DNA of 64,000 nt from Gammaproteobacteria bacterium (GCA_026708965.1 JAPOTY010000024.1:20785-84784); one strand, 5' to 3'; shown: positions 4,386 to 29,655, numbered from the stretch's first letter. Numbers and translations: made by a program. Notes: generated by a model not told the origin, from the sequence alone.

Positions 4386-4490
4386 ACAATCTGGCCCGCG
4401 CCTTACCCGCAAGCGCGGCGGCGGCCTTTCGCCGCAGCCCGCGAATTGACGCAATCGACTGCGTCGCAAGCAACGAGACCGGAATTCCCC

Positions 4491-5126
4491 ATGCAAGCGC
4501 CTTGGAACCTGAAAGATCGCTTCCGCAGCTTCATGCCCGTGGCCGTGGACGTGGAGACCGGCGGCCTCGAACCGGAAACACACGCGCTGCTGGAAATCTC
4601 GGCGGTTCTGCTCAGCGTATGCGACGATGGCCAGCTGGCGCCTTCGGAGCATGTGTGGCTCCATGTGCAGCCGTTCGAGGGCGCCGCGATCGATCCAGAA
4701 GCGCTGCGCATCAATGAAATAAAGCCCAACCATCCGCTGCGCCCGGCGGTGCCGGAGCGCGAGGCGCTGCGGCGCGTATTTCGAGTGGTGCGCAGAGAGC
4801 TCAAGGCCACCGGTTGCTCACGCGCCATACTGGTGGGCCATAACGCGCACTTCGACTTGGCGGTCCTAAACGCCGCAATCAAGCGCAGCGGCATCAAGCG
4901 CAACCCGTTCCATCGGTTCAGCGTGTTCGACACCTGCACGCTGGGCGGGGCGATGTTCGGCCAAACCGTGATGAGCCTGGCGGCCCAGGCCGCCGGCCTG
5001 AAATGGAACGAGGAGCGCGCTCATTCCGCTCTGTACGATGCCCAAATCTGCGCGCAACTGTTCTGCGAGGCCATCAACCGGATCCACGATCAGTCCAATC
5101 CCGCGCTTTCCCGAACGCGCGCTTAG
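4491..5126 (+). CDS. rnt: ribonuclease T (DEDDh 3'-5' exonuclease)
   Basis: The 211-aa protein starts at the ATG at 4491. DEDDh motifs are present: VAVDVETGG, HNAHFDLAVL and HSALYDA. Confidence 0.88.
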   Translation: MQAPWNLKDRFRSFMPVAVDVETGGLEPETHALLEISAVLLSVCDDGQLAPSEHVWLHVQPFEGAAIDPEALRINEIKPNHPLRPAVPEREALRRVFRVVRRELKATGCSRAILVGHNAHFDLAVLNAAIKRSGIKRNPFHRFSVFDTCTLGGAMFGQTVMSLAAQAAGLKWNEERAHSALYDAQICAQLFCEAINRIHDQSNPALSRTRA

Positions 5127-20144: not shown

Positions 20145-20476
20145 GCCTGTATCAACTGCAAAAATTCCTCTACGCGCTTAATCGAGACGAAGCGTCAAAG
20201 CGAAGATGCCGCGATAATATCCATGAGCTTTTGAATGATTTCGACTTAAGCGATGAGGAGCGGACCGCACTCATCGAGGGCGATATCGGCTTGCTCTACG
20301 TTCTGGGCGTGAATGGACAGATCCTGATGCATTTTGCGGCCTTCCTCGGAATCGAGTGGTTCGATTACCTGGAGCTCATGCGGCAAGGCATTCGCAAGCA
20401 CGGCCCCGTGCGCGCCGGCGTGTACGCGATGACCGGCGGCGGCGAGCGCTTCACTGCGGAGGAGAGGGCGCGATGA
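20141..20476 (+). CDS. small LigA-like subunit of class III extradiol dioxygenase (tentative)
   Basis: The 111-aa ORF forms a GTGA overlap with the hpaE stop and an ATGA overlap with the next gene. The pattern LYQLQKFLYALNRDE..LSDEERTALIEGDIG resembles the PCA 4,5-dioxygenase alpha chain. Confidence 0.55.
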   Translation: MSLYQLQKFLYALNRDEASKRRCRDNIHELLNDFDLSDEERTALIEGDIGLLYVLGVNGQILMHFAAFLGIEWFDYLELMRQGIRKHGPVRAGVYAMTGGGERFTAEERAR

Positions 20477-21297
20477 GCCTCGTTTACGTGGGCGTCTTAA
20501 GCCATGCGCCGGGCATTACCGGGCGGGCCGATCTGGTCAAAAACGTAGCGGTTAGAAACGAGTTCTACGAGAAACTGGACCAGCAGCGCCAAGAGATCGA
20601 AACAGCGAAGCCCGATGCCCTGGTTGTGGTCGCCGCGGAGCACTTCGCGAATTTCTTCATGAGCAATATGCCTGCTTTCTGCATCGGAATCGGCGCGCAG
20701 CACACTGGCCCTATAGAAGATCCGCAGTGGCTCAAAATCCCGGCCACGACGGTGCCGGGCCATGCTGATCTCGGCCGCCGGCTCTGCACCGAGATCATGC
20801 AGTCGGTTGATCTCGCTTATGCGGAGGAATGGAAGCTGGACCACGGCATCATGGTTCCGCTGCATTTCCTCACCCCCCGCTACGACCTGCCCGTGATCCC
20901 CGTGAACATTAATTGCCAAGGCCCTCCGCTCACGCCGCTGCATCGGGCGTGGGCATTCGGCCAAGCCTTGAAGCGCGCCTGCGCCGCGGTCCCGGAACGA
21001 GTGGCGGTTGTGGGAACCGGAGGGATTTCCCATTGGCCGGCAACGCCGGATTCCGGAAAAATAAACGCCAAGTGGGATCTTGAGTTTCTCCACCGCCTTG
21101 GCCGCGCCGATAAAAAAGCGCTGCTGTCCTACACCGATGAAGCGACTTACCGCGAGGGCGGCCAGGGCGCTTTCGAGATCCGGACCTATATCGCCGCCGC
21201 CGCCGCCGCAGGCGGGCCGCTGCGCCTGCAGTTCTACACCGAAAAGCTGCCGATTTTCGCCGTGGGCTGCACGGTCGGCCGATTTGACATCAGGTGA
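20473..21297 (+). CDS. class III extradiol ring-cleavage dioxygenase, LigB/HpaD family
   Basis: The 274-aa protein starts MSLVYVGVLSHAPGI. It also has the EHFANFF, DHGIMVPL and GGISHWP patterns typical of the LigB family. Confidence 0.85.
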   Translation: MSLVYVGVLSHAPGITGRADLVKNVAVRNEFYEKLDQQRQEIETAKPDALVVVAAEHFANFFMSNMPAFCIGIGAQHTGPIEDPQWLKIPATTVPGHADLGRRLCTEIMQSVDLAYAEEWKLDHGIMVPLHFLTPRYDLPVIPVNINCQGPPLTPLHRAWAFGQALKRACAAVPERVAVVGTGGISHWPATPDSGKINAKWDLEFLHRLGRADKKALLSYTDEATYREGGQGAFEIRTYIAAAAAAGGPLRLQFYTEKLPIFAVGCTVGRFDIR

Positions 21298-21418: not shown

Positions 21419-24400
21419 ATGGAGACAGTTCTCTCTATGGCGATGAATACGCACGAACGGGAGCTTGAGGAGGCGCTTGTCGCCAAGCTCCGGCGCCTCA
21501 ACTACGAATACCGCCCCGATATCCGCGACCGGGCGGCGCTCGAAGCGAATTTCAGGGAGAAATTCGAGGCGCTGAACCGGGTCCAGCTCAGCGACGGCGA
21601 GTTCCGGCGGCTTCTCGACAATATCGTCACGCCCGACGCGTACGAAGCCGCGCGCTCGCTCCGCAACCGGGAAGCGTTCCTCCGCGACGACGGCACGCCG
21701 CTCAACTACACGCTGGTCAATATCAACGACTGGTGCAAGAACACCTTCGAGGTGGTCAACCAGCTCCGCATCAATACCGACTACAGCCATCACCGCTACG
21801 ACGTGATCGTCCTGATCAACGGCATTCCGGCGGCGCAGATCGAGTTGAAGTCGCTCGGGATCAGCCCCCGGCGGGCCATGGAGCAGATCGTCGATTACAA
21901 GAACGATCCCGGCAACGGCTACGCCCGCACGCTGCTCTGCTTCGTCCAGCTCTTCATCGTCAGCAACCGCGCGGACACCTGGTACTTCGCCAACAACAAC
22001 GCGCCGCACTTCGCCTTCGACGCGGACGAGCGGTTCCTTCCGGTCTATCAGTTCGCCGACGAGGACAATGCCAAAATCACCCATCTCGACGATTTCGCCG
22101 AGCGTTTCCTCGCCAAATGCGCGCTCGGCGAGACGATCAGCAAGCACATGGTGCTGATCGCGACCGAACGGAAGCTGATGATGATGCGCCCGTACCAGAT
22201 CTACGCGGTGAAGGCCATCGTCGATTGCATCGAGCAGAACCGCGGCAACGGCTATATCTGGCACACCACCGGCTCGGGCAAGACGCTCACCTCCTTCAAG
22301 GCCGCGACGCTGCTCAAGGCCAACGGCAGCATCCGCAAGTGCCTGTTCGTGGTTGACCGCAAGGATCTCGACCGGCAGACCCGCGAGGAGTTCAACCGTT
22401 TCCAGGAGAACTGCGTGGAGGAAAACACCAGCACCGCCGCGCTGGTCCGCCGCCTCCTTTCCGACGACTATGCGGACAAGGTGATCGTCACCACCATCCA
22501 GAAGCTCGGGCTGGCGCTCGGCGAGAGCGGCAAGCGCAACAAGCGGAGCGCCGCGCGGGGCCGGCCAACGTTCAAGCGGCGGCTTGAGCATCTCCGCGGC
22601 CAGCGGATGGTGTTCATCTTCGACGAATGCCACCGCTCGCAGTTCGGCGAGAACCACAAGGCCATCAAGGCGTTCTTCCCGAACTCCCAGCTATTCGGCT
22701 TCACCGGCACGCCGATCTTCGAGGACAACGCGGCCGCGAGGAAGATCGAGGGGGATGCCGCCACCCTGCGGACCACGGAGGACCTGTTCCAGAAGCAACT
22801 CCACGCCTATACCATCACCCACGCCATCGAGGACCGCAACGTCCTGCGCTTCCATGTCGATTACTACAAGCCCAAGGACGCCCCGGCCCCCAAGCCGGGG
22901 CAGACGCTCGCCAAGCAGGCGGTCGCCCAGGCCATTCTCGGCAAGCACGATGCCGCCACCGGCGGCCGGCGCTTCAACGCGCTGCTGGCCACCGCCTCGA
23001 TCAACGACGCCATCGAGTACTTCGAGGTGTTCAAGGCGCTGCAAGCCGAGCGTAGCGCCGCCAACCCCGGCTTCGTCCCTCTCAAAATCGCCGCCGTGTT
23101 CTCGCCGCCCGCGGAGGGCAACAAGGACATCCAGCAGATCCAGGAGGACCTGCCGCAGGAGCAGGCGGACAACCGGCACGACCCCGAGGGCAAGAAGGCC
23201 GCGCTCGCGGCCATCATCCGCGACTACAACGAGCGCTACGGCGCCAACCACGACCTCAGCAACTTCGACCTCTACTACCAAGACATCCAGCAGCGCATAA
23301 AAAGCCAGCAGTTCCCCAACCGCGATTTGCCTCTAAAGGGCGCGGAGAAGATCGATATCGCCATCGTGGTCGATATGCTTCTCACCGGGTTCGACGCCAA
23401 GTATCTGAACACGCTCTACGTTGATAAGAACCTCAAGCACCACGGCCTGATCCAGGCCTTCTCGCGCACCAACCGCGTGCTCAACGCCGCCAAGCCCTAC
23501 GGCCAGATCCTCGATTTCCGCCAGCAGCAGGAAAGCGTGGATGCCGCCATCGCGCTGTTCTCCGGCGCCCAAGCCGACCGCGCCCGCGAAATATGGCTGG
23601 TCGATAAAGCTCCCGTGGTGATCGAGCGCTTCGGGAAGGCCGTCGCCGAACTCGACGGGTTGATGCGCTCGCAAGGGCTGGAGGCGAAGCCCGACCAGGT
23701 GGGCAACCTGAGGGGCGACGATGCCCGCGTCCAGTTCATCAAGCGGTTCAAGGAGGTGCAGCGCCTCCAGACCCAGCTCGACCAGTACACCGACCTCGCC
23801 GACGAGCAGCGGGAGCAAATCGAGCGGGTTCTTCCGAAGGACGACCTCCGGGCCTTCCGCGGCGCCTACCTCGAAACCGCCCGGCGCCTGAAGGACCAGC
23901 AGGGCAGGAGCGGCCCGGACGGCGGGCCGGCCAATCCCGATATCGACCAGCTCGATTTCGAGTTCGTGCTGTTCGCCTCCGCGCTGATCGACTACGACTA
24001 CATCATGGCGCTGATCGCCAAGTATTCCCGGCAGGACCCGAAAAAGGTCGAGATCAGCCGCGAGCAACTGATCGGGCTGATCCGCTCCGACGCCAAATTC
24101 CTCGGCGTGCGCGAGGAGATCGCCGAGTACGTCCATTCCATCGAGGAGGGCGAGGGCTTGGACGAGAACGAGGTCCGCGCCGGCTACCAGCGGTTCAAGG
24201 CCGGGAAGCAGGCGCAGGAGATCGACGATCTCGCCCGGGCCCACGGCCTGGCGACCGATTCGCTGTCGGCCTTCGTCGAAACCATCCTCCAGCGCATGGT
24301 CTTCGACGGCGAGCGGCTCACCGACCTGATGGAGCCGCTGGGCCTAAGCTGGCGCGAACGCCGCGAGCGCGAGCTCGCGCTGATGGCCGATCTCGCCCCG

Positions 24401-24457
24401 CTGCTGAGGAAGCGAGCGGAAGGCCGGGAAATCTCCGGCCTCGCCGCGTATGATTAG
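21419..24457 (+). CDS. hsdR: type I restriction enzyme R subunit
   Basis: The 1012-aa protein has helicase motif I (HTTGSGKTLT) and motif II (FIFDECHRSQ). Length is typical for HsdR. Confidence 0.95.
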   Translation: METVLSMAMNTHERELEEALVAKLRRLNYEYRPDIRDRAALEANFREKFEALNRVQLSDGEFRRLLDNIVTPDAYEAARSLRNREAFLRDDGTPLNYTLVNINDWCKNTFEVVNQLRINTDYSHHRYDVIVLINGIPAAQIELKSLGISPRRAMEQIVDYKNDPGNGYARTLLCFVQLFIVSNRADTWYFANNNAPHFAFDADERFLPVYQFADEDNAKITHLDDFAERFLAKCALGETISKHMVLIATERKLMMMRPYQIYAVKAIVDCIEQNRGNGYIWHTTGSGKTLTSFKAATLLKANGSIRKCLFVVDRKDLDRQTREEFNRFQENCVEENTSTAALVRRLLSDDYADKVIVTTIQKLGLALGESGKRNKRSAARGRPTFKRRLEHLRGQRMVFIFDECHRSQFGENHKAIKAFFPNSQLFGFTGTPIFEDNAAARKIEGDAATLRTTEDLFQKQLHAYTITHAIEDRNVLRFHVDYYKPKDAPAPKPGQTLAKQAVAQAILGKHDAATGGRRFNALLATASINDAIEYFEVFKALQAERSAANPGFVPLKIAAVFSPPAEGNKDIQQIQEDLPQEQADNRHDPEGKKAALAAIIRDYNERYGANHDLSNFDLYYQDIQQRIKSQQFPNRDLPLKGAEKIDIAIVVDMLLTGFDAKYLNTLYVDKNLKHHGLIQAFSRTNRVLNAAKPYGQILDFRQQQESVDAAIALFSGAQADRAREIWLVDKAPVVIERFGKAVAELDGLMRSQGLEAKPDQVGNLRGDDARVQFIKRFKEVQRLQTQLDQYTDLADEQREQIERVLPKDDLRAFRGAYLETARRLKDQQGRSGPDGGPANPDIDQLDFEFVLFASALIDYDYIMALIAKYSRQDPKKVEISREQLIGLIRSDAKFLGVREEIAEYVHSIEEGEGLDENEVRAGYQRFKAGKQAQEIDDLARAHGLATDSLSAFVETILQRMVFDGERLTDLMEPLGLSWRERRERELALMADLAPLLRKRAEGREISGLAAYD

Positions 24458-24606
24458 CAAATGGTCCGTCAGCCAGCGGCCTTCGGGGTGTCGGGCGGCA
24501 GCCTCGCCGACCATTTTGCCGATGCCGGGAAAATGGCCGAACCCGGCTCTGGCAGCAAGCGAAAAACCGGCGACTTCGCGCCGCCCCGCCTGCTCACCAA
24601 GCGCAG

Positions 24607-24825
24607 TTATTGGCTCGCCGCCGCACCGCTTGAGTTTTCGCCGCCGATCAGCCGATTCTCAATGACTGCGAGGCGAATCTCTAAACCCGTCACGCGGTCG
24701 CTGAGCCGATCAATCCGATTGCTGGTATTTCCCCACGCCATCCATATAGCAACCAGGATGGTGGCAGTGCTGGCAACAACAGTGGCACCCAAGCCAAGAG
24801 TGCATCCGATCAACGTCTTGTTCAT
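24607..24825 (-). CDS. hypothetical small membrane-anchored coiled-coil protein, antisense to the R-M operon
   Basis: The 72-aa ORF has an N-terminal TM helix followed by RIDRLSDRVTGLEIRLAVIENRL. It lies in the AT-richer hsdR-hsdS spacer and has the same architecture as the ORF at 11699-11989. Confidence 0.35.
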   Translation of the reverse strand: MNKTLIGCTLGLGATVVASTATILVAIWMAWGNTSNRIDRLSDRVTGLEIRLAVIENRLIGGENSSGAAASQ

Positions 24826-24946
24826 ACCCCGGAGTATATAGTAGCCGGAGGCTTTGCGTGGTCAGGCGGATCATGCCCAAAGAGAGTCGATCAACAACTG
24901 GCATCAGCAGAGAAAAAGCGCCGAAACACCCGCCCGGACTGGAAGA

Positions 24947-26185
24947 ATGACGCGAGCAGCGAAAGCATTGACACCGAAACTCCGCTTCCCGGAGTTTCGA
25001 GAATGGCCCAAATGGGATTTACTGACGTTGTCGTCCGCTAGTGATGTAAACCCAAAAAATGGCGGGTTGCCGAAGCAGTTCATCTATATCGACCTCGAAT
25101 CGGTCAAGAACAGCACACTTATCGAGCGAAAAGAAATCAGTCGAGACGCTGCCCCGAGCCGTGCTCAGCGACTACTGAGTCGCAAGGACATCATTTACCA
25201 AACGGTACGCCCCTATCAACGAAACAACCTCTTTTTCGACATTGACGACGGGCGCGAATACGTGGCTTCAACGGGCTATGCGCAGATTCGAGCATATGGA
25301 AGTCCAAGGTTTCTGTACCAGCTACTTCACACAGATTCATTTGTGAGGAGTGTCCTAGCCCGATGCACGGGATCAAACTACCCTGCAATAAACCCTTCAG
25401 CTCTCGCATCAATTGAAGTGTTGCTGCCGAAGGAAGGCGAGCAGCGGAAGATCGCCGACTGCCTCGGCTCGCTGGACGATCTGATCGCGGCGGAGGCCCG
25501 CAAGCTCGAAGCCCTGCGCCAGCACAAGAAAGGGCTGATGCAGCAACTCTTCCCCCAACCCGGCGAAACCGCCCCCCGCCTCCGCTTCCCCGAGTTCGTG
25601 GGGCAGCCGTTGCATCACGTTCGACTCCGCGATTTGACGGAACAATCCACGGCAAGAAATGGCAAGAAACTCTCGTTGGAAGCAGTGATGGGAGTGAATA
25701 AAGAGCATGGCATTGTTCCGATGAAGAAGCGGTTGGTTGCTGCGGACATTTCCCGTTACAAACTTGTCCGCAGCAATTGGTTCGCCTATAACCCGATGCG
25801 ACTGAACATTGGCTCTATTGCGCGATACCAAGGCAACGGCAATATCCTCGTGAGCCCGGACTACGTCGTATTCCGCTGCCTTGAGCGATCCATGCCAACA
25901 GGGCTTCTTCCAGAATATCTCGATAGCTTTCGCAGTTGTTGGCAATGGCACGTGTTCGTAAACGAAGCCGGTGATGGTGGAGTACGTGTGCGAATCTACT
26001 ACCGTGACCTCGCGCAACTGCAATTGGCACTGCCTAGCATTGCGGAGCAGCGGAAGATCGCCGAGTGCCTCGGCTCGCTGGATGCCTTGATCGCGGCGGG
26101 GGGCCGGAAGCTCGAAGCGCTGCGACAGCACAAGCGAGGGCTGATGCAGCAGCTTTTTCCGAATCCCAAGGAGGGTCATGCATGA
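24947..26185 (+). CDS. hsdS: type I restriction-modification specificity subunit
   Basis: There are two variable TRDs, each followed by the conserved helix EQRKIA(D/E)CLGSLD.LIAA..RKLEALRQHK.GLMQQLFP. The start was trimmed to the ATG at 24947 (LRFPEFREW). Confidence 0.9.
   Translation: MTRAAKALTPKLRFPEFREWPKWDLLTLSSASDVNPKNGGLPKQFIYIDLESVKNSTLIERKEISRDAAPSRAQRLLSRKDIIYQTVRPYQRNNLFFDIDDGREYVASTGYAQIRAYGSPRFLYQLLHTDSFVRSVLARCTGSNYPAINPSALASIEVLLPKEGEQRKIADCLGSLDDLIAAEARKLEALRQHKKGLMQQLFPQPGETAPRLRFPEFVGQPLHHVRLRDLTEQSTARNGKKLSLEAVMGVNKEHGIVPMKKRLVAADISRYKLVRSNWFAYNPMRLNIGSIARYQGNGNILVSPDYVVFRCLERSMPTGLLPEYLDSFRSCWQWHVFVNEAGDGGVRVRIYYRDLAQLQLALPSIAEQRKIAECLGSLDALIAAGGRKLEALRQHKRGLMQQLFPNPKEGHA
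25439..25555 (+). repeat. hsdS conserved-region direct repeat, copy 1
   Basis: This ~117-bp segment is near-identical to 26045-26161 and encodes the central conserved helix. Confidence 0.85.
26045..26161 (+). repeat. hsdS conserved-region direct repeat, copy 2
   Basis: This is the partner of 25439-25555 and encodes the C-terminal conserved helix. Confidence 0.85.
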
Positions 26186-26649
26186 GCTATCCCTACAGCA
26201 CCCACCGGATTCACGAAATCCTCAAAGCGGAAAAGCGCTTGCCCGAGGGCGATGCCGACGAGTCGAAGAAGGTCGGCAAAAGCGGCCTTTACGAAACCCG
26301 CCCGGAATTGATAGACGGGCCGTTCGTGGACATGCGCTATATCGCCAAGGCGCCCGTGCTGACTGAGGTGACGACTTGCGAGGCCAGCTTTCTGCTCGCC
26401 AATCAGCGGGTGCGCGGCGTAGGCTATCATTCAGTGGGTCGCTGGAACTTCCGTTTCAAGCAACGCATCCCCAAGGGCTGGCATCTCAATGTTTGCGATC
26501 CGAACCTGCCGACCAACGATCCCAAGCAGAACATCCACCAGCCCCTGCCGGAATTCACGACAACCGATTTCAAGGACTTCATACGAAAAACGACAAAACT
26601 CTGGAAAATAGATCTTGGCCGAACACAGGAAGGAGAACTATTCTCATGA
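26182..26649 (+). CDS. hypothetical protein (155 aa) embedded in the R-M operon
   Basis: The ATG at 26182 forms an ATGA overlap with the hsdS stop, and its own stop forms an ATGA overlap with the next gene. I recognise no family. The region is AT-richer than hsdR and hsdM. Confidence 0.6.
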   Translation: MSYPYSTHRIHEILKAEKRLPEGDADESKKVGKSGLYETRPELIDGPFVDMRYIAKAPVLTEVTTCEASFLLANQRVRGVGYHSVGRWNFRFKQRIPKGWHLNVCDPNLPTNDPKQNIHQPLPEFTTTDFKDFIRKTTKLWKIDLGRTQEGELFS

Positions 26650-27080
26650 CCAGCGCCACGGACTTGAAAGCCGAATTACGCGGGCTCCTGAATGGATTCT
26701 GGAATGAGGCTCTGGAGATGGAGCCGCTCCCGGAGGGGGTGGCGTTCACCATGCCCATGTCCTATCCCGACGGCTGGCAGGTGACGATGGAGTTGCGCCA
26801 GAAGACCCCCGCCGGGTTTTACTTGAGCGATGGGGGCAAGACGCTGGCTTGGCTGCTGGGGCAAGGGCAAAACATTGCCGCCGATGCGGTACAAGGCCAT
26901 CTCAGGCGGCTTTGCTCCGAGCACGCCATCGAAGAGGCCAATGGCGTGCTCTACCGGTGGTTGCAAGCCCCGCTCAACCCGCTCGACTTGCAAGTGTTCG
27001 CCGAAGGGCTGGTGGCGGTTTCCCGATTGGATATTCTGAACGTGCGCCGAATACCCGAGAAGGAGGCATGCCATGATTGA
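26646..27080 (+). CDS. hypothetical protein (144 aa), possibly DUF1828-like
   Basis: It is translationally coupled on both sides. The segment FTMPMSYPDGWQVTMELRQKTPAGFYLSDGGKTLAWLLGQG recalls the DUF1828 pattern (from memory, unverified). Confidence 0.55.
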   Translation: MTSATDLKAELRGLLNGFWNEALEMEPLPEGVAFTMPMSYPDGWQVTMELRQKTPAGFYLSDGGKTLAWLLGQGQNIAADAVQGHLRRLCSEHAIEEANGVLYRWLQAPLNPLDLQVFAEGLVAVSRLDILNVRRIPEKEACHD

Positions 27081-27492
27081 TCCGACGCCCCGCTGGCATT
27101 ACCGGTTTGACAATTATCGCCGCGCATTCAATCTGTTGCGCGAAGCTGTTGAACGGGAAGCGCCGCTGACGCAACTGGAAACGGAGGGCGTTATCCAGCG
27201 CTTCGAATACACTATGGAACTGGCATGGAAAACCTTGAAAGACTACTTGGAGAGCGAAAACGCAGTGCTGGATCAAATGACGCCGCGCACCGTGATTCGC
27301 CATGCTTTCGAGGCAGGCATCGTTCGGCAGGGCGAGATTTTGCAAAAGGCGCTTGATGCGCGCAATCGCATGTCGCACACCTACGACTTTGAAACTTTCC
27401 AGCAGGTCGTTGCCGATATTCGCGGCGGTTATCTGGCGGCATTCGAAGAATTGCACGAATTTCTGCTGACCCGGCGGGCTGGTGAACTATGA
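27073..27492 (+). CDS. HI0074-family nucleotidyltransferase substrate-binding protein (HEPN)
   Basis: It has WHYRFDNYRRAF, QRFEYTMELAWKTLKDYL and an Rx4H HEPN motif (RNRMSH). The RBS AGGAGG lies at 27061-27066. Confidence 0.85.
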   Translation: MIDPTPRWHYRFDNYRRAFNLLREAVEREAPLTQLETEGVIQRFEYTMELAWKTLKDYLESENAVLDQMTPRTVIRHAFEAGIVRQGEILQKALDARNRMSHTYDFETFQQVVADIRGGYLAAFEELHEFLLTRRAGEL

Positions 27493-27827
27493 GCAATGAC
27501 TTTGGTTTGTCCGCAACCCAGCGAGAGACACTGAGAGAGATATTGGCCACTCTCAGCGGCCAGTTTGAGAGCGTGGCCGTTTTCGGATCGCGCGCCGTAG
27601 GGCGGCAGCGGCCCAACTCCGATTTGGATCTGGTGCTTTACGGCTGCGCCGACGAAGCCGTCTGCGACCGATTGCGAACTCTATTGCAGGACAGTCCCTT
27701 GCCTTTTTCCGTCGATGTGAAAAATTATGCTGCTATCGGGCATTTGCCGTTGAAAGCCCATATCGATTCTGTCGCGCTGCCTTTATTTGAGCAGACCGAG
27801 CATGGGTTGATGGCGGTTGCCAGCTAG
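27489..27827 (+). CDS. minimal nucleotidyltransferase (MNT, HI0073-like)
   Basis: It has the pol-beta NTase motif VAVFGSRAVGRQRPNSDLDLVL. Its start forms an ATGA overlap with the HEPN gene stop. Confidence 0.85.
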   Translation: MSNDFGLSATQRETLREILATLSGQFESVAVFGSRAVGRQRPNSDLDLVLYGCADEAVCDRLRTLLQDSPLPFSVDVKNYAAIGHLPLKAHIDSVALPLFEQTEHGLMAVAS

Positions 27828-27876
27828 GAGACTGCGCTGTGGCGCATCTGTTTTTCCGGGGCGTGAAAAGTAGGGC

Positions 27877-29508
27877 ATGAACGGGCAGCGCCAGCAGCAA
27901 CTCGGCAAGACGCTGTGGGCCATCGCCGACCAGCTTCGCGGGGCGATGAACGCGGACGATTTCCGCGACTACATGCTGGCGTTTCTGTTTCTCCGCTACC
28001 TTTCGGACAACTACGAGCGGGCCGCGAGGAAGGAGCTTGGGCGCGACTGGCCCGATCCGGCCGCAGGCGATGCGGGCAATAGCGGCCGCTCCCCGCTGTC
28101 CGCTTGGTACGAGCGCAATCCCGCCGACGGGCCGGTGTTCGAGCAGCAGATGCGGCTCAAAGCGCATTACGTGATCCGTCCGGAGTTCCTCTGGAGCGGC
28201 ATCGCCCGCATGGCCCGCACCCAAAACGGCGAGCTGCTCAACACGCTGCAAGCGGGCTTCAAGTACATCGAGAACGAGTCGTTCCGGAGCACGTTCTCGG
28301 GGCTGTTCTCGGAAATCAACCTCGGCTCGGACAAGCTCGGCAAAACCTACGAGGAGAGGAACGCCAAGCTCTGCGCCATCATCACCAAGATCGCCGAGGG
28401 CTTCGCGGAGTTCTCCGCGGACAGCGATGCCTTGGGCGACGCCTACGAGTACCTGATCGGCCAGTTCGCCGCCGGCTCGGGCAAGAAGGCCGGCGAGTTC
28501 TACACGCCGCAGCGCATATCGGACATCCTCTCCGCCATCGTCGCGCTCGACAGCCAGGCGCCGAGCACCGGCCAGCGGACGCGCCTCGCCAGCGTGATGG
28601 ACTTCGCCTGCGGCTCGGGCTCGCTGCTGCTGAACGTGCGCAAGCGCATGGGGCCGCGCGGCATCGGCAGGGTTTACGGGCAGGAGAAGAACGTCACCAC
28701 CTACAACCTCGCCCGGATGAACATGCTGCTGCACGGGGTGAAGGACTCGGAGTTCCAGATCTTCCACGGCGACACGCTCACCAACGACTGGGACCTGCTG
28801 CGCGAGGCGAACCCGGCCAGGAAGCCCCGATTCGATGCCGTGGTGGCCAATCCGCCGTTCAGCTACCGCTGGACCCCGAGCGAGGCGCTGGGCGAGGATA
28901 TGCGCTTCAAGAGCCACGGGCTGGCCCCCAAGTCGGCGGCGGATTTCGCGTTCCTGCTGCACGGCTTCCACTACCTCAAGGACGACGGCGTGATGGCCAT
29001 CATCCTTCCGCACGGCGTGCTGTTCCGCAGCGGCGCGGAGGCGAGGATCCGCCGCAAGCTCTTGGAAGACGGGCGCATCGACACCGTGATCGGCCTGCCG
29101 GCCAACCTGTTCTATTCAACCGGCATTCCGGTTTGCATCCTGGTGCTGAAAAAGTGCAAGAAGCCCGACGATGTGCTGTTCATCAACGCGGCCGAGCATT
29201 TCGAGAAAGGCAAGCGCCAGAACTCCCTGTCCGACGCGCATATCGCGAAGATCATCGCCGCTTACCGGGAGCGCCCGGAGCATGTCGAGCGCTACGCCCG
29301 GCGCGTGCGGATGGATGAGATCGAGCGCAACGACTTCAACCTCAATATCTCCCGCTACGTGAGCACCGCCAAGCCGGAAACCCCCGTCGATCTCTCCGCC
29401 ACGCACACCGAGCTGGTCGAAACGACCAAGCAGGTCCGGCAATCAACGGCCAAGCACAACGCTTTCCTCAAGGAACTTGGGCTATCCCCGTTGCCAACAC
29501 CCGATTGA
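27877..29508 (+). CDS. hsdM: type I restriction-modification DNA methyltransferase subunit
   Basis: It has N6-MTase motif I (DFACGSGSLL) and motif IV (VVANPPFSYRW). Length is 543 aa. Confidence 0.95.
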   Translation: MNGQRQQQLGKTLWAIADQLRGAMNADDFRDYMLAFLFLRYLSDNYERAARKELGRDWPDPAAGDAGNSGRSPLSAWYERNPADGPVFEQQMRLKAHYVIRPEFLWSGIARMARTQNGELLNTLQAGFKYIENESFRSTFSGLFSEINLGSDKLGKTYEERNAKLCAIITKIAEGFAEFSADSDALGDAYEYLIGQFAAGSGKKAGEFYTPQRISDILSAIVALDSQAPSTGQRTRLASVMDFACGSGSLLLNVRKRMGPRGIGRVYGQEKNVTTYNLARMNMLLHGVKDSEFQIFHGDTLTNDWDLLREANPARKPRFDAVVANPPFSYRWTPSEALGEDMRFKSHGLAPKSAADFAFLLHGFHYLKDDGVMAIILPHGVLFRSGAEARIRRKLLEDGRIDTVIGLPANLFYSTGIPVCILVLKKCKKPDDVLFINAAEHFEKGKRQNSLSDAHIAKIIAAYRERPEHVERYARRVRMDEIERNDFNLNISRYVSTAKPETPVDLSATHTELVETTKQVRQSTAKHNAFLKELGLSPLPTPD

Positions 29509-29541
29509 CCTGGGCCTATGCCGCCCCGAGGTGCCGACCGG

Positions 29542-29578
29542 GATGCGTCCGGCCCGGATGAAGGTGGCGCAGCGGGGA
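29542..29578 (+). repeat. isolated loop-end plus right arm resembling the palindromic element family
   Basis: GATGCGTC followed by CGGCCCGGATGAAGGTGGCGCAGCGGGGA resembles the GATGCGTCTCCCGGAAGAGGGG.. end of the full copies. The match is degenerate. Confidence 0.35.
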
Positions 29579-29579
29579 T

Positions 29580-29655
<76 letters not shown>

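Follow-up and report, generated by a model that had tools for sequence, protein, structure and literature searches.

The question whether genes that overlap one another inside a restriction-modification (R-M) operon also belong together is raised by a locus of a Gammaproteobacteria bacterium (GCA_026708965.1 JAPOTY010000024.1:20785-84784), of which a stretch of 64,000 nucleotides, here called the window, was analysed. Positions 21419 to 29508 hold a type I R-M operon in which four accessory genes, termed X, Y, HEPN and MNT, stand between the specificity gene hsdS and the methyltransferase gene hsdM. A preliminary description of the same DNA had proposed hsdS and the four inserted genes as a candidate composite defence module, probably expressed as one unit. 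The reading that we consider probable is a different one, namely an intact operon of the order hsdR-hsdS-hsdM (R-S-M), whose hsdS-hsdM junction is a landing site for accessory genes and whose present cargo is a chimera of an X-Y remnant and a HEPN-MNT pair.

The seven genes hsdR, hsdS, X, Y, HEPN, MNT and hsdM were all called as open reading frames (ORFs) on the plus strand. The cargo starts with X (26182-26649, 155 aa, an undescribed family) and Y (26646-27080, 144 aa, with a DUF1828-type N-terminal domain, or N-domain). The latter is denoted Y-short, as the protein of its relatives, denoted Y-long, has about 260 aa. They are followed by HEPN (27073-27492, 139 aa, of the HI0074 or NTase_sub_bind class and a predicted RNase toxin) and MNT (27489-27827, a minimal nucleotidyltransferase of 112 aa and the predicted antitoxin). 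When the sequence was read directly, ATGA overlaps were found at 26182-26185, 26646-26649 and 27489-27492, and Y and HEPN share 8 nt at 27073-27080. Ribosome-binding sites of the GGAGG type lie 7-14 nt 5' of the starts of X, Y and HEPN, each within the 3'-terminal part of the gene before. The same seven genes occur in identical arrangement and chromosomal context in three further, independent assemblies of this species (L130-L132; operons of relatives are given by L numbers), and the arrangement is therefore no assembly artefact.

The seam within the cargo was located by DNA comparison with L044, an operon of the order hsdR-hsdS-X-Ylong-61-aa ORF-hsdM with 85-87% DNA identity to the window. 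Homology stops at window position 27052 (L044 7413) and restarts at 27874 (L044 8032), 3 nt before the start of hsdM. Between the breakpoints 27052/27053 and 27873/27874, 821 bp in the window stand in place of 618 bp in L044. This replacement cassette (27053-27873, plus strand) consists of a leader with a ribosome-binding site, HEPN, MNT and a trailing hairpin, and the last ~9 residues of window Y are encoded by its leader. The replaced L044 stretch encodes the C-terminal domain (C-domain) of Y and the 61-aa ORF (L044 7836-8021, between Y-long and hsdM), for which no counterpart was detectable in the window. The arrangement R-S-X-Ylong-M with the same ATGA overlaps is found in L044/L045 and in the Verrucomicrobiota operons L016 and L020. 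L008 is collinear with the window over the whole of 26643-29557 and, because this collinearity runs from Y through hsdM, the HEPN-MNT replacement is common to the window and L008-L011. In these relatives X has been cleanly excised, window position 26186 being joined to 26643.

Further states of the cargo were recovered from other relatives. L046 keeps Y-long, and an internal deletion in X leaves a 47-aa ORF, while in L047 (Coraliomargarita algicola, complete genome CP138858.1) Y-long lies behind a 55-aa ORF at the position of X. L025/L026 keep X with Y cut to 79 aa. The heavily fragmented locus L012 has only a C-terminal fragment of X, and its short Y abuts hsdM with no HEPN-MNT between them. 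No HEPN or MNT homologue was found beside X-Y in any of the 110 other X loci in two collection scans. Judged by these comparisons, the cargo is made of two unrelated pieces, X-Y and HEPN-MNT, joined by a replacement event. The breakpoints show that cargo is replaced piecemeal at the hsdS-hsdM junction, and the family provides natural variants with both genes intact, with X lost and with the nuclease domain lost.

A typical Y of ~260 aa comprises a DUF1828 domain and a PD-(D/E)xK-like nuclease domain, and is almost twice as long as window Y. The latter scored 20.5 bits (E = 6e-4) against DUF1828 (PF08861), for which the gathering threshold is 22 bits; its relatives scored 22.5-30.8 bits, and two of them (P0122 and P0198) are named DUF1828 proteins by a source. 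Window Y matched the PADLOC model PDC-M24B at profile positions 26-101 of 256 (E = 1.3e-5), and Y-long over both domains (positions ~22-208 of 256, E = 1e-8 to 1.7e-10). As a model of Y-long, P0195 was used (260 aa, from the intact L044 operon and 83% identical to window Y over the shared part). Its predicted structure (pLDDT 86.9) has two domains and a disordered linker at residues 132-139. The N-domain is a four-strand meander with helices, and the C-domain follows in the model the order alpha, three beta strands, alpha, beta, alpha, beta, alpha. The best Foldseek matches of Y-long were mostly PD-(D/E)xK nucleases: Can2 (E = 1e-3), PspGI, NucS, an XisH-like protein (TM score 0.58 on the target), BspD6I and EndoMS. 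D174, K/R191, E199 and R204 show little or no variation among 118 full-length sequences.

In the alignment, window Y corresponds to residues 1-140 of the 260-aa forms and ends at the linker. The whole C-domain is missing, so that the window protein contains no PD-(D/E)xK domain, and a tblastn search across the whole window found no displaced nuclease half. Since the family's predicted nuclease domain is absent, the X-Y system of the window is incomplete. All conserved motifs of the N-domain (YPDGWQ, D62, G64, P109, D114, F118 and E120) are kept. A search with the Y profile gave no significant match among PDB sequences. Assignment of the N-domain to the CARF domains was rejected despite matches to Can2 and Card1, as its strand order is that of a meander and not Rossmann-like.

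X had no match in Pfam, PADLOC, NCBIfam or PHROG, and 33 members of its family matched none of the PADLOC models, PDC-M24A included, at E up to 1. The 137 homologues collected are all without names and stem mostly from metagenome-assembled genomes (MAGs) of Verrucomicrobiota, and when 1.84 billion representative proteins were searched exhaustively with a profile, only 119 representative clusters were returned. Almost all of these are single-domain proteins of ~150 aa, which therefore provide no informative fusions. The AlphaFold (AF2) model of X is confident (pLDDT 86.5, pTM 0.82). A Foldseek search of the PDB with this model gave no meaningful fold match (best E 0.56, TM score below 0.35), and the best match in BFVD was an uncharacterised siphovirus protein (E = 0.04). 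A profile search of PDB sequences returned nothing informative. The family has 17 invariant positions, including G-W-H-x-N...P-x-L...N-x-H, and window X retains all of them. X is an undescribed family and, among the cargo of the window, the sole one that is truly undescribed. A role of X as the essential antitoxin of a toxic Y nuclease was considered and rejected, because L046 and L047 keep a full-length Y with a remnant of X.

The neighbourhood of X was surveyed in 110 loci, 30 from genomes and 80 from metagenomes, which were reduced to 99 non-redundant ones. In all 72 of these that have at least 820 nt downstream of X, a Y gene follows directly and usually overlaps (70 full-length, ~260 aa, and two truncated); X-Y is therefore a strict two-gene cassette. 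In the near clade of X, with at least 55% identity to window X, type I hsd genes are present in 28 of 33 loci, in the patterns R-S-X-Y-M or M-S-X-Y-R, with additional cargo separating X from hsdS in some of them. In the far clade, an R-M-type gene ends no more than 250 nt from X in 12 of the 43 loci with at least 1.2 kb of upstream sequence. These upstream genes are MmeI-family type IIG, type ISP-like or HsdS-like, their stop codons sometimes overlapping the next start. A Pfam census of 29 upstream neighbours gave Methylase_S (6), MmeI_Mtase (5) and Type_ISP_C (1), single cases of ThsB_TIR, a Schlafen-type helicase, SLFN_AlbA_2, AAA_13, DUF4357, HicB and DUF3644, and a few housekeeping genes. 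Because distant X-Y pairs follow MmeI-family and type ISP-like enzymes, in the former case with overlapping stop and start codons (L048 group), the cassette is not specific to type I. Such pairs directly behind an MmeI-family type IIG or type ISP-like enzyme were noted in L048 (6604-10795), L037, L117, L036 and L038.

Other pairs stand alone among housekeeping genes, as in L003, and one copy lies in a non-R-M defence island with a SLFN-type helicase, DUF1016, PDDEXK_4 and Mrr nearby. X was absent from the viral contigs searched, and neither X nor Y-long was found in PLSDB plasmids. Taken as a family, X-Y is a candidate restriction-linked defence or guard system behind the specificity gene of type I, MmeI-type and type ISP-like enzymes. 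Fragments of hsd genes beside the cassettes suggest that cargo may move between operons by recombination in the flanking hsd ends. Where the surroundings are non-R-M or rearranged, 3' fragments of hsdS occur immediately 5' of X (L001/L018 and L005/L023), and short 5' fragments of hsdM flank the cassettes in L014 and L017. Such fragments, which border X-Y and neighbouring cassettes and look like exchange scars, were located in L014 (9805-9987 and 11990-12079), L017 (11263-11418 and 12402-12488), L001 (7848-7994) and L005 (7374-7628).

The R-M genes that frame the cargo were examined for completeness. hsdR (21419-24457, plus strand) encodes a type I restriction subunit of 1012 aa with a C-terminal domain of the EcoR124 type. 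Pfam assigned HSDR_N, SWI2_SNF2, ResIII, T1R_D3-like and EcoR124_C domains, the PADLOC model REase_I PDLC03048 matched with a reported E-value of 0, and TIGR00348 scored 384 bits at a cut-off of 284.55. The translation contains a Walker A motif (TTGSGKT), a DECH box and the nuclease motif D...ELK, and has the N-terminal PD-(D/E)xK nuclease, SF2 motor and C-terminal helical domain of a type I subunit. hsdS (plus strand) extends from an ATG at 24947, or an alternative TTG at 24854, to 26185 and encodes 412 or 443 aa, respectively. It has two target-recognition domains with conserved repeats between them, as is characteristic of type I, and matched Specificity_I PDLC03146 (2e-105) and several other Specificity_I models in two stretches (PADLOC) as well as Methylase_S (Pfam). 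An internal direct repeat of 123 nt and 85% identity (25439-25561 and 26045-26167) was rejected as a special feature, being the normal pair of conserved HsdS regions. hsdM (27877-29508, plus strand) encodes the methyltransferase subunit of 543 aa. It matched HsdM_N and N6_Mtase (4e-101) in Pfam and TIGR00497 (4e-108, 362 bits at a cut-off of 242.75), and its S-adenosylmethionine motif DFACGSG and the motif NPPF are those of a gamma-class N6-adenine methyltransferase. On this domain content, the operon is an intact type I R-M operon, and the system is probably functional.

Type IC systems are defined by the order hsdM-hsdS-hsdR and by subunit complementation with EcoR124I. The order found here is hsdR-hsdS-cargo-hsdM, and the part shared with type IC is the EcoR124_C domain of HsdR only. 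In a survey of 4273 genomes, hsdR-hsdS-hsdM was one of the four main type I arrangements (PMC12255300). The same order is present in every close relative recovered, that is in the gammaproteobacterial L008-L011, L044/L045 and L046 (HsdR identity 78-89%) and in L016, L017, L020 and L047 from Verrucomicrobiota (~69% where measured), and since all of them share it, R-S-M is typical of the lineage. The gene set, the strand and the overlaps of 4, 4, 8 and 4 nt reported in the preliminary description agree with the sequence as read here; its view of the R...S...M order as atypical does not stand, as this is a main published arrangement and that of all close relatives. The gap of ~490 nt between hsdR and hsdS holds an opposite-strand ORF of 72 aa and then a terminator-like hairpin. 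As hsdR is split from hsdS by this gap, it stands outside the coupled unit, which begins with hsdS and runs as far as MNT or hsdM.

The second half of the cargo belongs to a well-known type of gene pair. HEPN matched PF08780 (2.6e-41) in Pfam and TIGR01987, the HI0074 family, in NCBIfam; in the PDB it matched the toxin 8xdj/8xeh (4e-21), TTHA0048 and HI0074 (1jog). The R-x4-6-H motif of HEPN RNases is present as R97-N-R-M-S-H102, is followed by T-Y104 and aligns with SRNQTSHTY of PDB 8xdj; Y104, near the active site, is a candidate residue for nucleotidylylation. MNT matched Polbeta and NTP_transf_2 in Pfam, and HI0073 (1no5) and the MNT chain of 8xeh in the PDB, and its translation contains the GS-x(n)-DxD motif as GSRAVGRQRPNSDLDL (GS...DLD). 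Its score against the NCBIfam MntA equivalog was 25.5 bits, far under the cut-off of 60, and MNT was therefore assigned to the HI0073/HI0074 class and not to MntA. The pair shares with this class (1jog, 1no5 and 8xdj/8xeh), which is functionally analogous to the Shewanella type VII HepT/MntA pair, the overlap of the genes, the R-x4-H sequence followed by T-Y and the GS...DxD motif. It differs in that HEPN comes first, and in that the pair lacks a promoter region of its own and interrupts the reading frame of another gene inside an R-M operon. Operon links between HEPN genes and R-M systems are well documented and involve at least 16 HEPN clades (PMC3710099).

When the locus was compared with known systems, the window cargo was found to consist of an orphan protein, a DUF1828 protein and a HEPN-MNT pair. 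Defence genes embedded in R-M operons are a known phenomenon, with PrrC in the EcoprrI locus as the classical case, and X-Y is a new candidate pair of this kind. In contrast to PrrC, the cargo includes no ABC-ATPase/HEPN anticodon nuclease, and Pfam, PADLOC and NCBIfam scans detected in none of the four cargo proteins the ATPase domain that PrrC and RloC carry. Guilt-by-embedding in type I R-M, BREX and DISARM loci, an established route to new immune systems, has given rise to the PDC candidates of PADLOC (Payne et al., bioRxiv 10.1101/2024.01.29.577857). The locus resembles the embedded type I cargo of that study in that its accessory genes share the strand of the hsd genes between which they lie and would be expressed together with them, and in that the cargo varies between related operons, for example in L047; it differs from it in the composition of the cargo given above.

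By profile similarity, the nearest known thing to X-Y is PDC-M24: its B protein is a distant relative of Y, and no similarity of its A protein to X was detected. This cassette, FAM_00129>>FAM_00065, is listed as a candidate outside the tested systems, and its B family FAM_00065 is also recorded with the upstream partner FAM_01408 (supplement of bioRxiv 10.1101/2024.01.29.577857). X-Y is likewise a two-gene cassette with a small upstream gene embedded in R-M, BREX or DISARM loci, and the match of Y-long to B extends over both domains. The window, however, does not hold the pair of A and B that makes up PDC-M24, as its Y covers positions 26-101 of the B profile only and A is matched neither by X nor by 32 of its homologues. 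A literature search returned only two incidental mentions of DUF1828, and none of PDC-M24 in main texts. The predicted architecture of Y-long, an N-terminal non-catalytic domain, a linker and a C-terminal restriction-endonuclease-like fold, resembles that of the CARF nucleases Can2 and Card1 and of NucS/EndoMS, but these matches are weak (E 1e-3 to 1e-2, TM scores 0.28-0.35). In addition, the Can2 and Card1 CARF domains are Rossmann-like whereas the N-domain of Y-long is a meander, its ExK motif is non-canonical, and the window copy is without the nuclease domain.

In the reading favoured here, the locus is most likely a functional type I R-M system with a HEPN/MNT abortive-infection or addiction layer between hsdS and hsdM. 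The genes hsdS, X, Y (as its N-domain), HEPN, MNT and hsdM would be carried on one transcript and be translationally coupled. HsdM and HsdS would methylate, and HsdR, expressed from a unit of its own, would restrict. The HEPN RNase would be held inactive by nucleotidylylation catalysed by MNT, as in characterised type VII HEPN/MNT systems. The position between hsdS and hsdM would also shield the cargo, as a polar loss of hsdM expression would leave the chromosome open to attack by HsdR. X and the N-domain of Y would be retained for some role; with the ancestral effector domain gone, they cannot do what the complete pair does in other loci. The window itself is accordingly modest in content: an R-M system that probably works, a HEPN-MNT pair of the ordinary kind, and a chimeric copy of X-Y that is probably crippled.

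Several points weigh against this reading. Purifying selection on Y-short argues for some role beyond what it explains. Y-long does not preserve the canonical (D/E)xK triad, the acidic ExK position being Q in 82% of the sequences, so that its nuclease activity, plausible as it is, is deduced from the fold alone. A simple scan found no sigma-70-like promoter 5' of hsdS. In the characterised pairs HI0073/HI0074 and SO_3165/SO_3166 the MNT gene comes first, whereas here HEPN precedes MNT and the antitoxin gene is thus not the upstream one. Finally, the host is an uncultured gammaproteobacterium known from a MAG alone.

Selection on the cargo was assessed as the ratio of nonsynonymous to synonymous substitution (dN/dS) by the Nei-Gojobori method, comparing the window with L008 except for X, which was compared with L044. 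The ratios were 0.20 for Y-short (dS 0.83, with no stop codon or frameshift), 0.19 for HEPN, 0.11 for MNT and 0.235 for X, and 0.16 and 0.17 for the R-M genes hsdR and hsdM. X and the N-domain of Y are under purifying selection. Simple decay of the truncated Y is argued against by the fact that it is open and constrained across two lineages with the truncation. The repeated and independent losses of X or of part of Y in the clade argue that neither gene is indispensable.

These ratios bear on an alternative in which the effector was swapped, the DUF1828 N-domain being a sensor or adaptor that now acts with HEPN and MNT in trans, as a three-gene unit in which X is optional. Consistent with this, Y-short, HEPN and MNT are kept with their overlaps in both the window and L008-L011 (dS 0.4-0.8, dN/dS 0.11-0.20), Y is coupled to HEPN by the 8-nt overlap, Y-short retains every conserved N-domain motif, and L008 has retained the trio after a clean deletion of X. 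The arrangement is limited to a single lineage, however, with no HEPN or MNT beside X-Y in the 110 other X loci, and HEPN-MNT pairs elsewhere are self-sufficient modules (PDB 8xeh; PMC4621449). In L012, moreover, a short Y stands directly before hsdM without HEPN-MNT, though this locus is heavily fragmented. An effector swap is thus considered unlikely. The same doubt attaches to the wider proposal that the DUF1828 N-domain serves R-M-associated immunity as a portable sensor or adaptor that can be wired to different effectors, its nuclease having been exchanged for HEPN and MNT here. If this were true, X-Y would represent a new defence system coupled to R-M, X would be a protein of unseen fold, and the window, L044 (intact), L008 (no X) and L046 (X broken) would form a natural deletion series.

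It appears no less doubtful that X and Y-short are functionless leftovers, kept only since their deletion would put the expression of hsdM at risk. The absence of the predicted effector domain from window Y would fit such relics, as would the repeated independent damage among relatives, in which X is absent (L008-L011), reduced to remnants (L046, 47 aa; L047, 55 aa) or to a fragment (L012), or Y is cut to 79 aa (L025/L026). Against this, both ORFs are intact in the window with all family-invariant residues kept, they are identical in three further assemblies, and the ratios for Y-short (at dS 0.83 and with an uninterrupted frame) and for X are those of constrained genes.

An accessory function for the neighbouring enzyme, in which X and Y would regulate or help it by way of restriction onset, of the specificity subunit or of guarding against anti-restriction proteins, is improbable. 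X-Y does lie directly behind the target-recognition gene in three R-M classes (HsdS, MmeI-type and type ISP-like), often with overlapping codons, and searches of phage contigs and plasmids yielded no X. Many far-clade pairs are solitary, however, with no R-M gene within 10 kb (L003/L027, L029 and L034), the copy in the defence island mentioned above has non-R-M neighbours, and an effector domain with a nuclease fold better suits an autonomous system.

That hsdS and the four inserted genes are one co-adapted five-gene defence module is very improbable, in spite of the unbroken overlaps from hsdS to MNT and an arrangement stable in four assemblies of one species, in view of two separate cargo origins with mapped recombination breakpoints and of relatives in which X-Y (L044 and L016), Y-HEPN-MNT (L008) or Y (L046) persists by itself. 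What is retained of the composite module in the preliminary description is its embedded defence cargo; the four genes are not one co-evolved module. Its placing of them as accessory genes within a type I R-M operon is upheld, and homologues of X and Y clearly recur in R-M loci. Its suggestion that the two unnamed components might be new holds for X, whereas Y-like proteins are already listed in PADLOC as the candidate PDC-M24B.

Some further features of the operon were noted. The 72-aa ORF between hsdR and hsdS (24607-24825, minus strand) has terminator-like hairpins at 24585-24568, directly past its stop codon. For its product, a hydrophobic helix at the N-terminus and then a coiled-coil-like tail are predicted, and scans of Pfam, PADLOC, NCBIfam and PHROG gave no family match. 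It is 100% identical in L130-L132 and an annotated gene in L131; in L044/L045 only its C-terminal 44 aa are kept (82%), and the region is missing from L008. Inside the cassette, between MNT and hsdM, a weak stem-loop followed by a T-run (27833-27846, plus strand, a consensus match) may be an attenuator; the number of terminator-like sites across the region, in a scan that includes this hairpin, is not above the shuffled expectation. The GC content is 0.54-0.59 over hsdS, X, Y, HEPN and MNT (24500-27999) and 0.62-0.69 in hsdR, hsdM and the flanking chromosome, and the lower values are consistent with hsdS and the cargo having another history than the remaining operon.

The operon forms an islet of 8.2 kb between LigA/LigB-type dioxygenase genes (flank 20356-21297) and a tRNA-Thr(CGT) gene (29580-29655, minus strand), which marks its right border 72 nt past hsdM and points with its 3' end toward hsdM. 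No direct repeat of the 3' end of this tRNA gene was found elsewhere in the window as an island border, no integrase-sized ORF stood out near the islet, where the flanking ORFs are without annotation, and no flanking repeat was seen. Beyond the tRNA gene, from 29848 onward, lies a minor-pilin cluster (GspH, PilW and ComP_DUS in L130). The operon lies elsewhere in the chromosome of relatives: in L044 it is flanked by SURF1/DUF2909 and a peptidase S8 gene, and in L008 it is found inside the glycine-cleavage gene cluster. L008-L011 carry an ApeA-type HEPN gene (ApeA_NTD1 and HEPN_Apea, 509 aa; 11972-13501 in L008) directly after hsdM, L008 has a HicA toxin gene (4478-4702) before hsdR, and two half-size genes of 193 and 198 aa take the place of a single hsdS in L010/L011. 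A heavily loaded R...S...M operon is that of L047 (580-15018), with a KilA-N gene between hsdR and hsdS. Eight genes were called between its hsdS and hsdM, encoding a 418-aa protein with no assigned function, a D12-class methyltransferase, an AAA_15/AAA_21 ATPase, the 55-aa remnant of X, Y-long, DUF1016/YhcG, RhuM and a 23S_rRNA_IVP protein.

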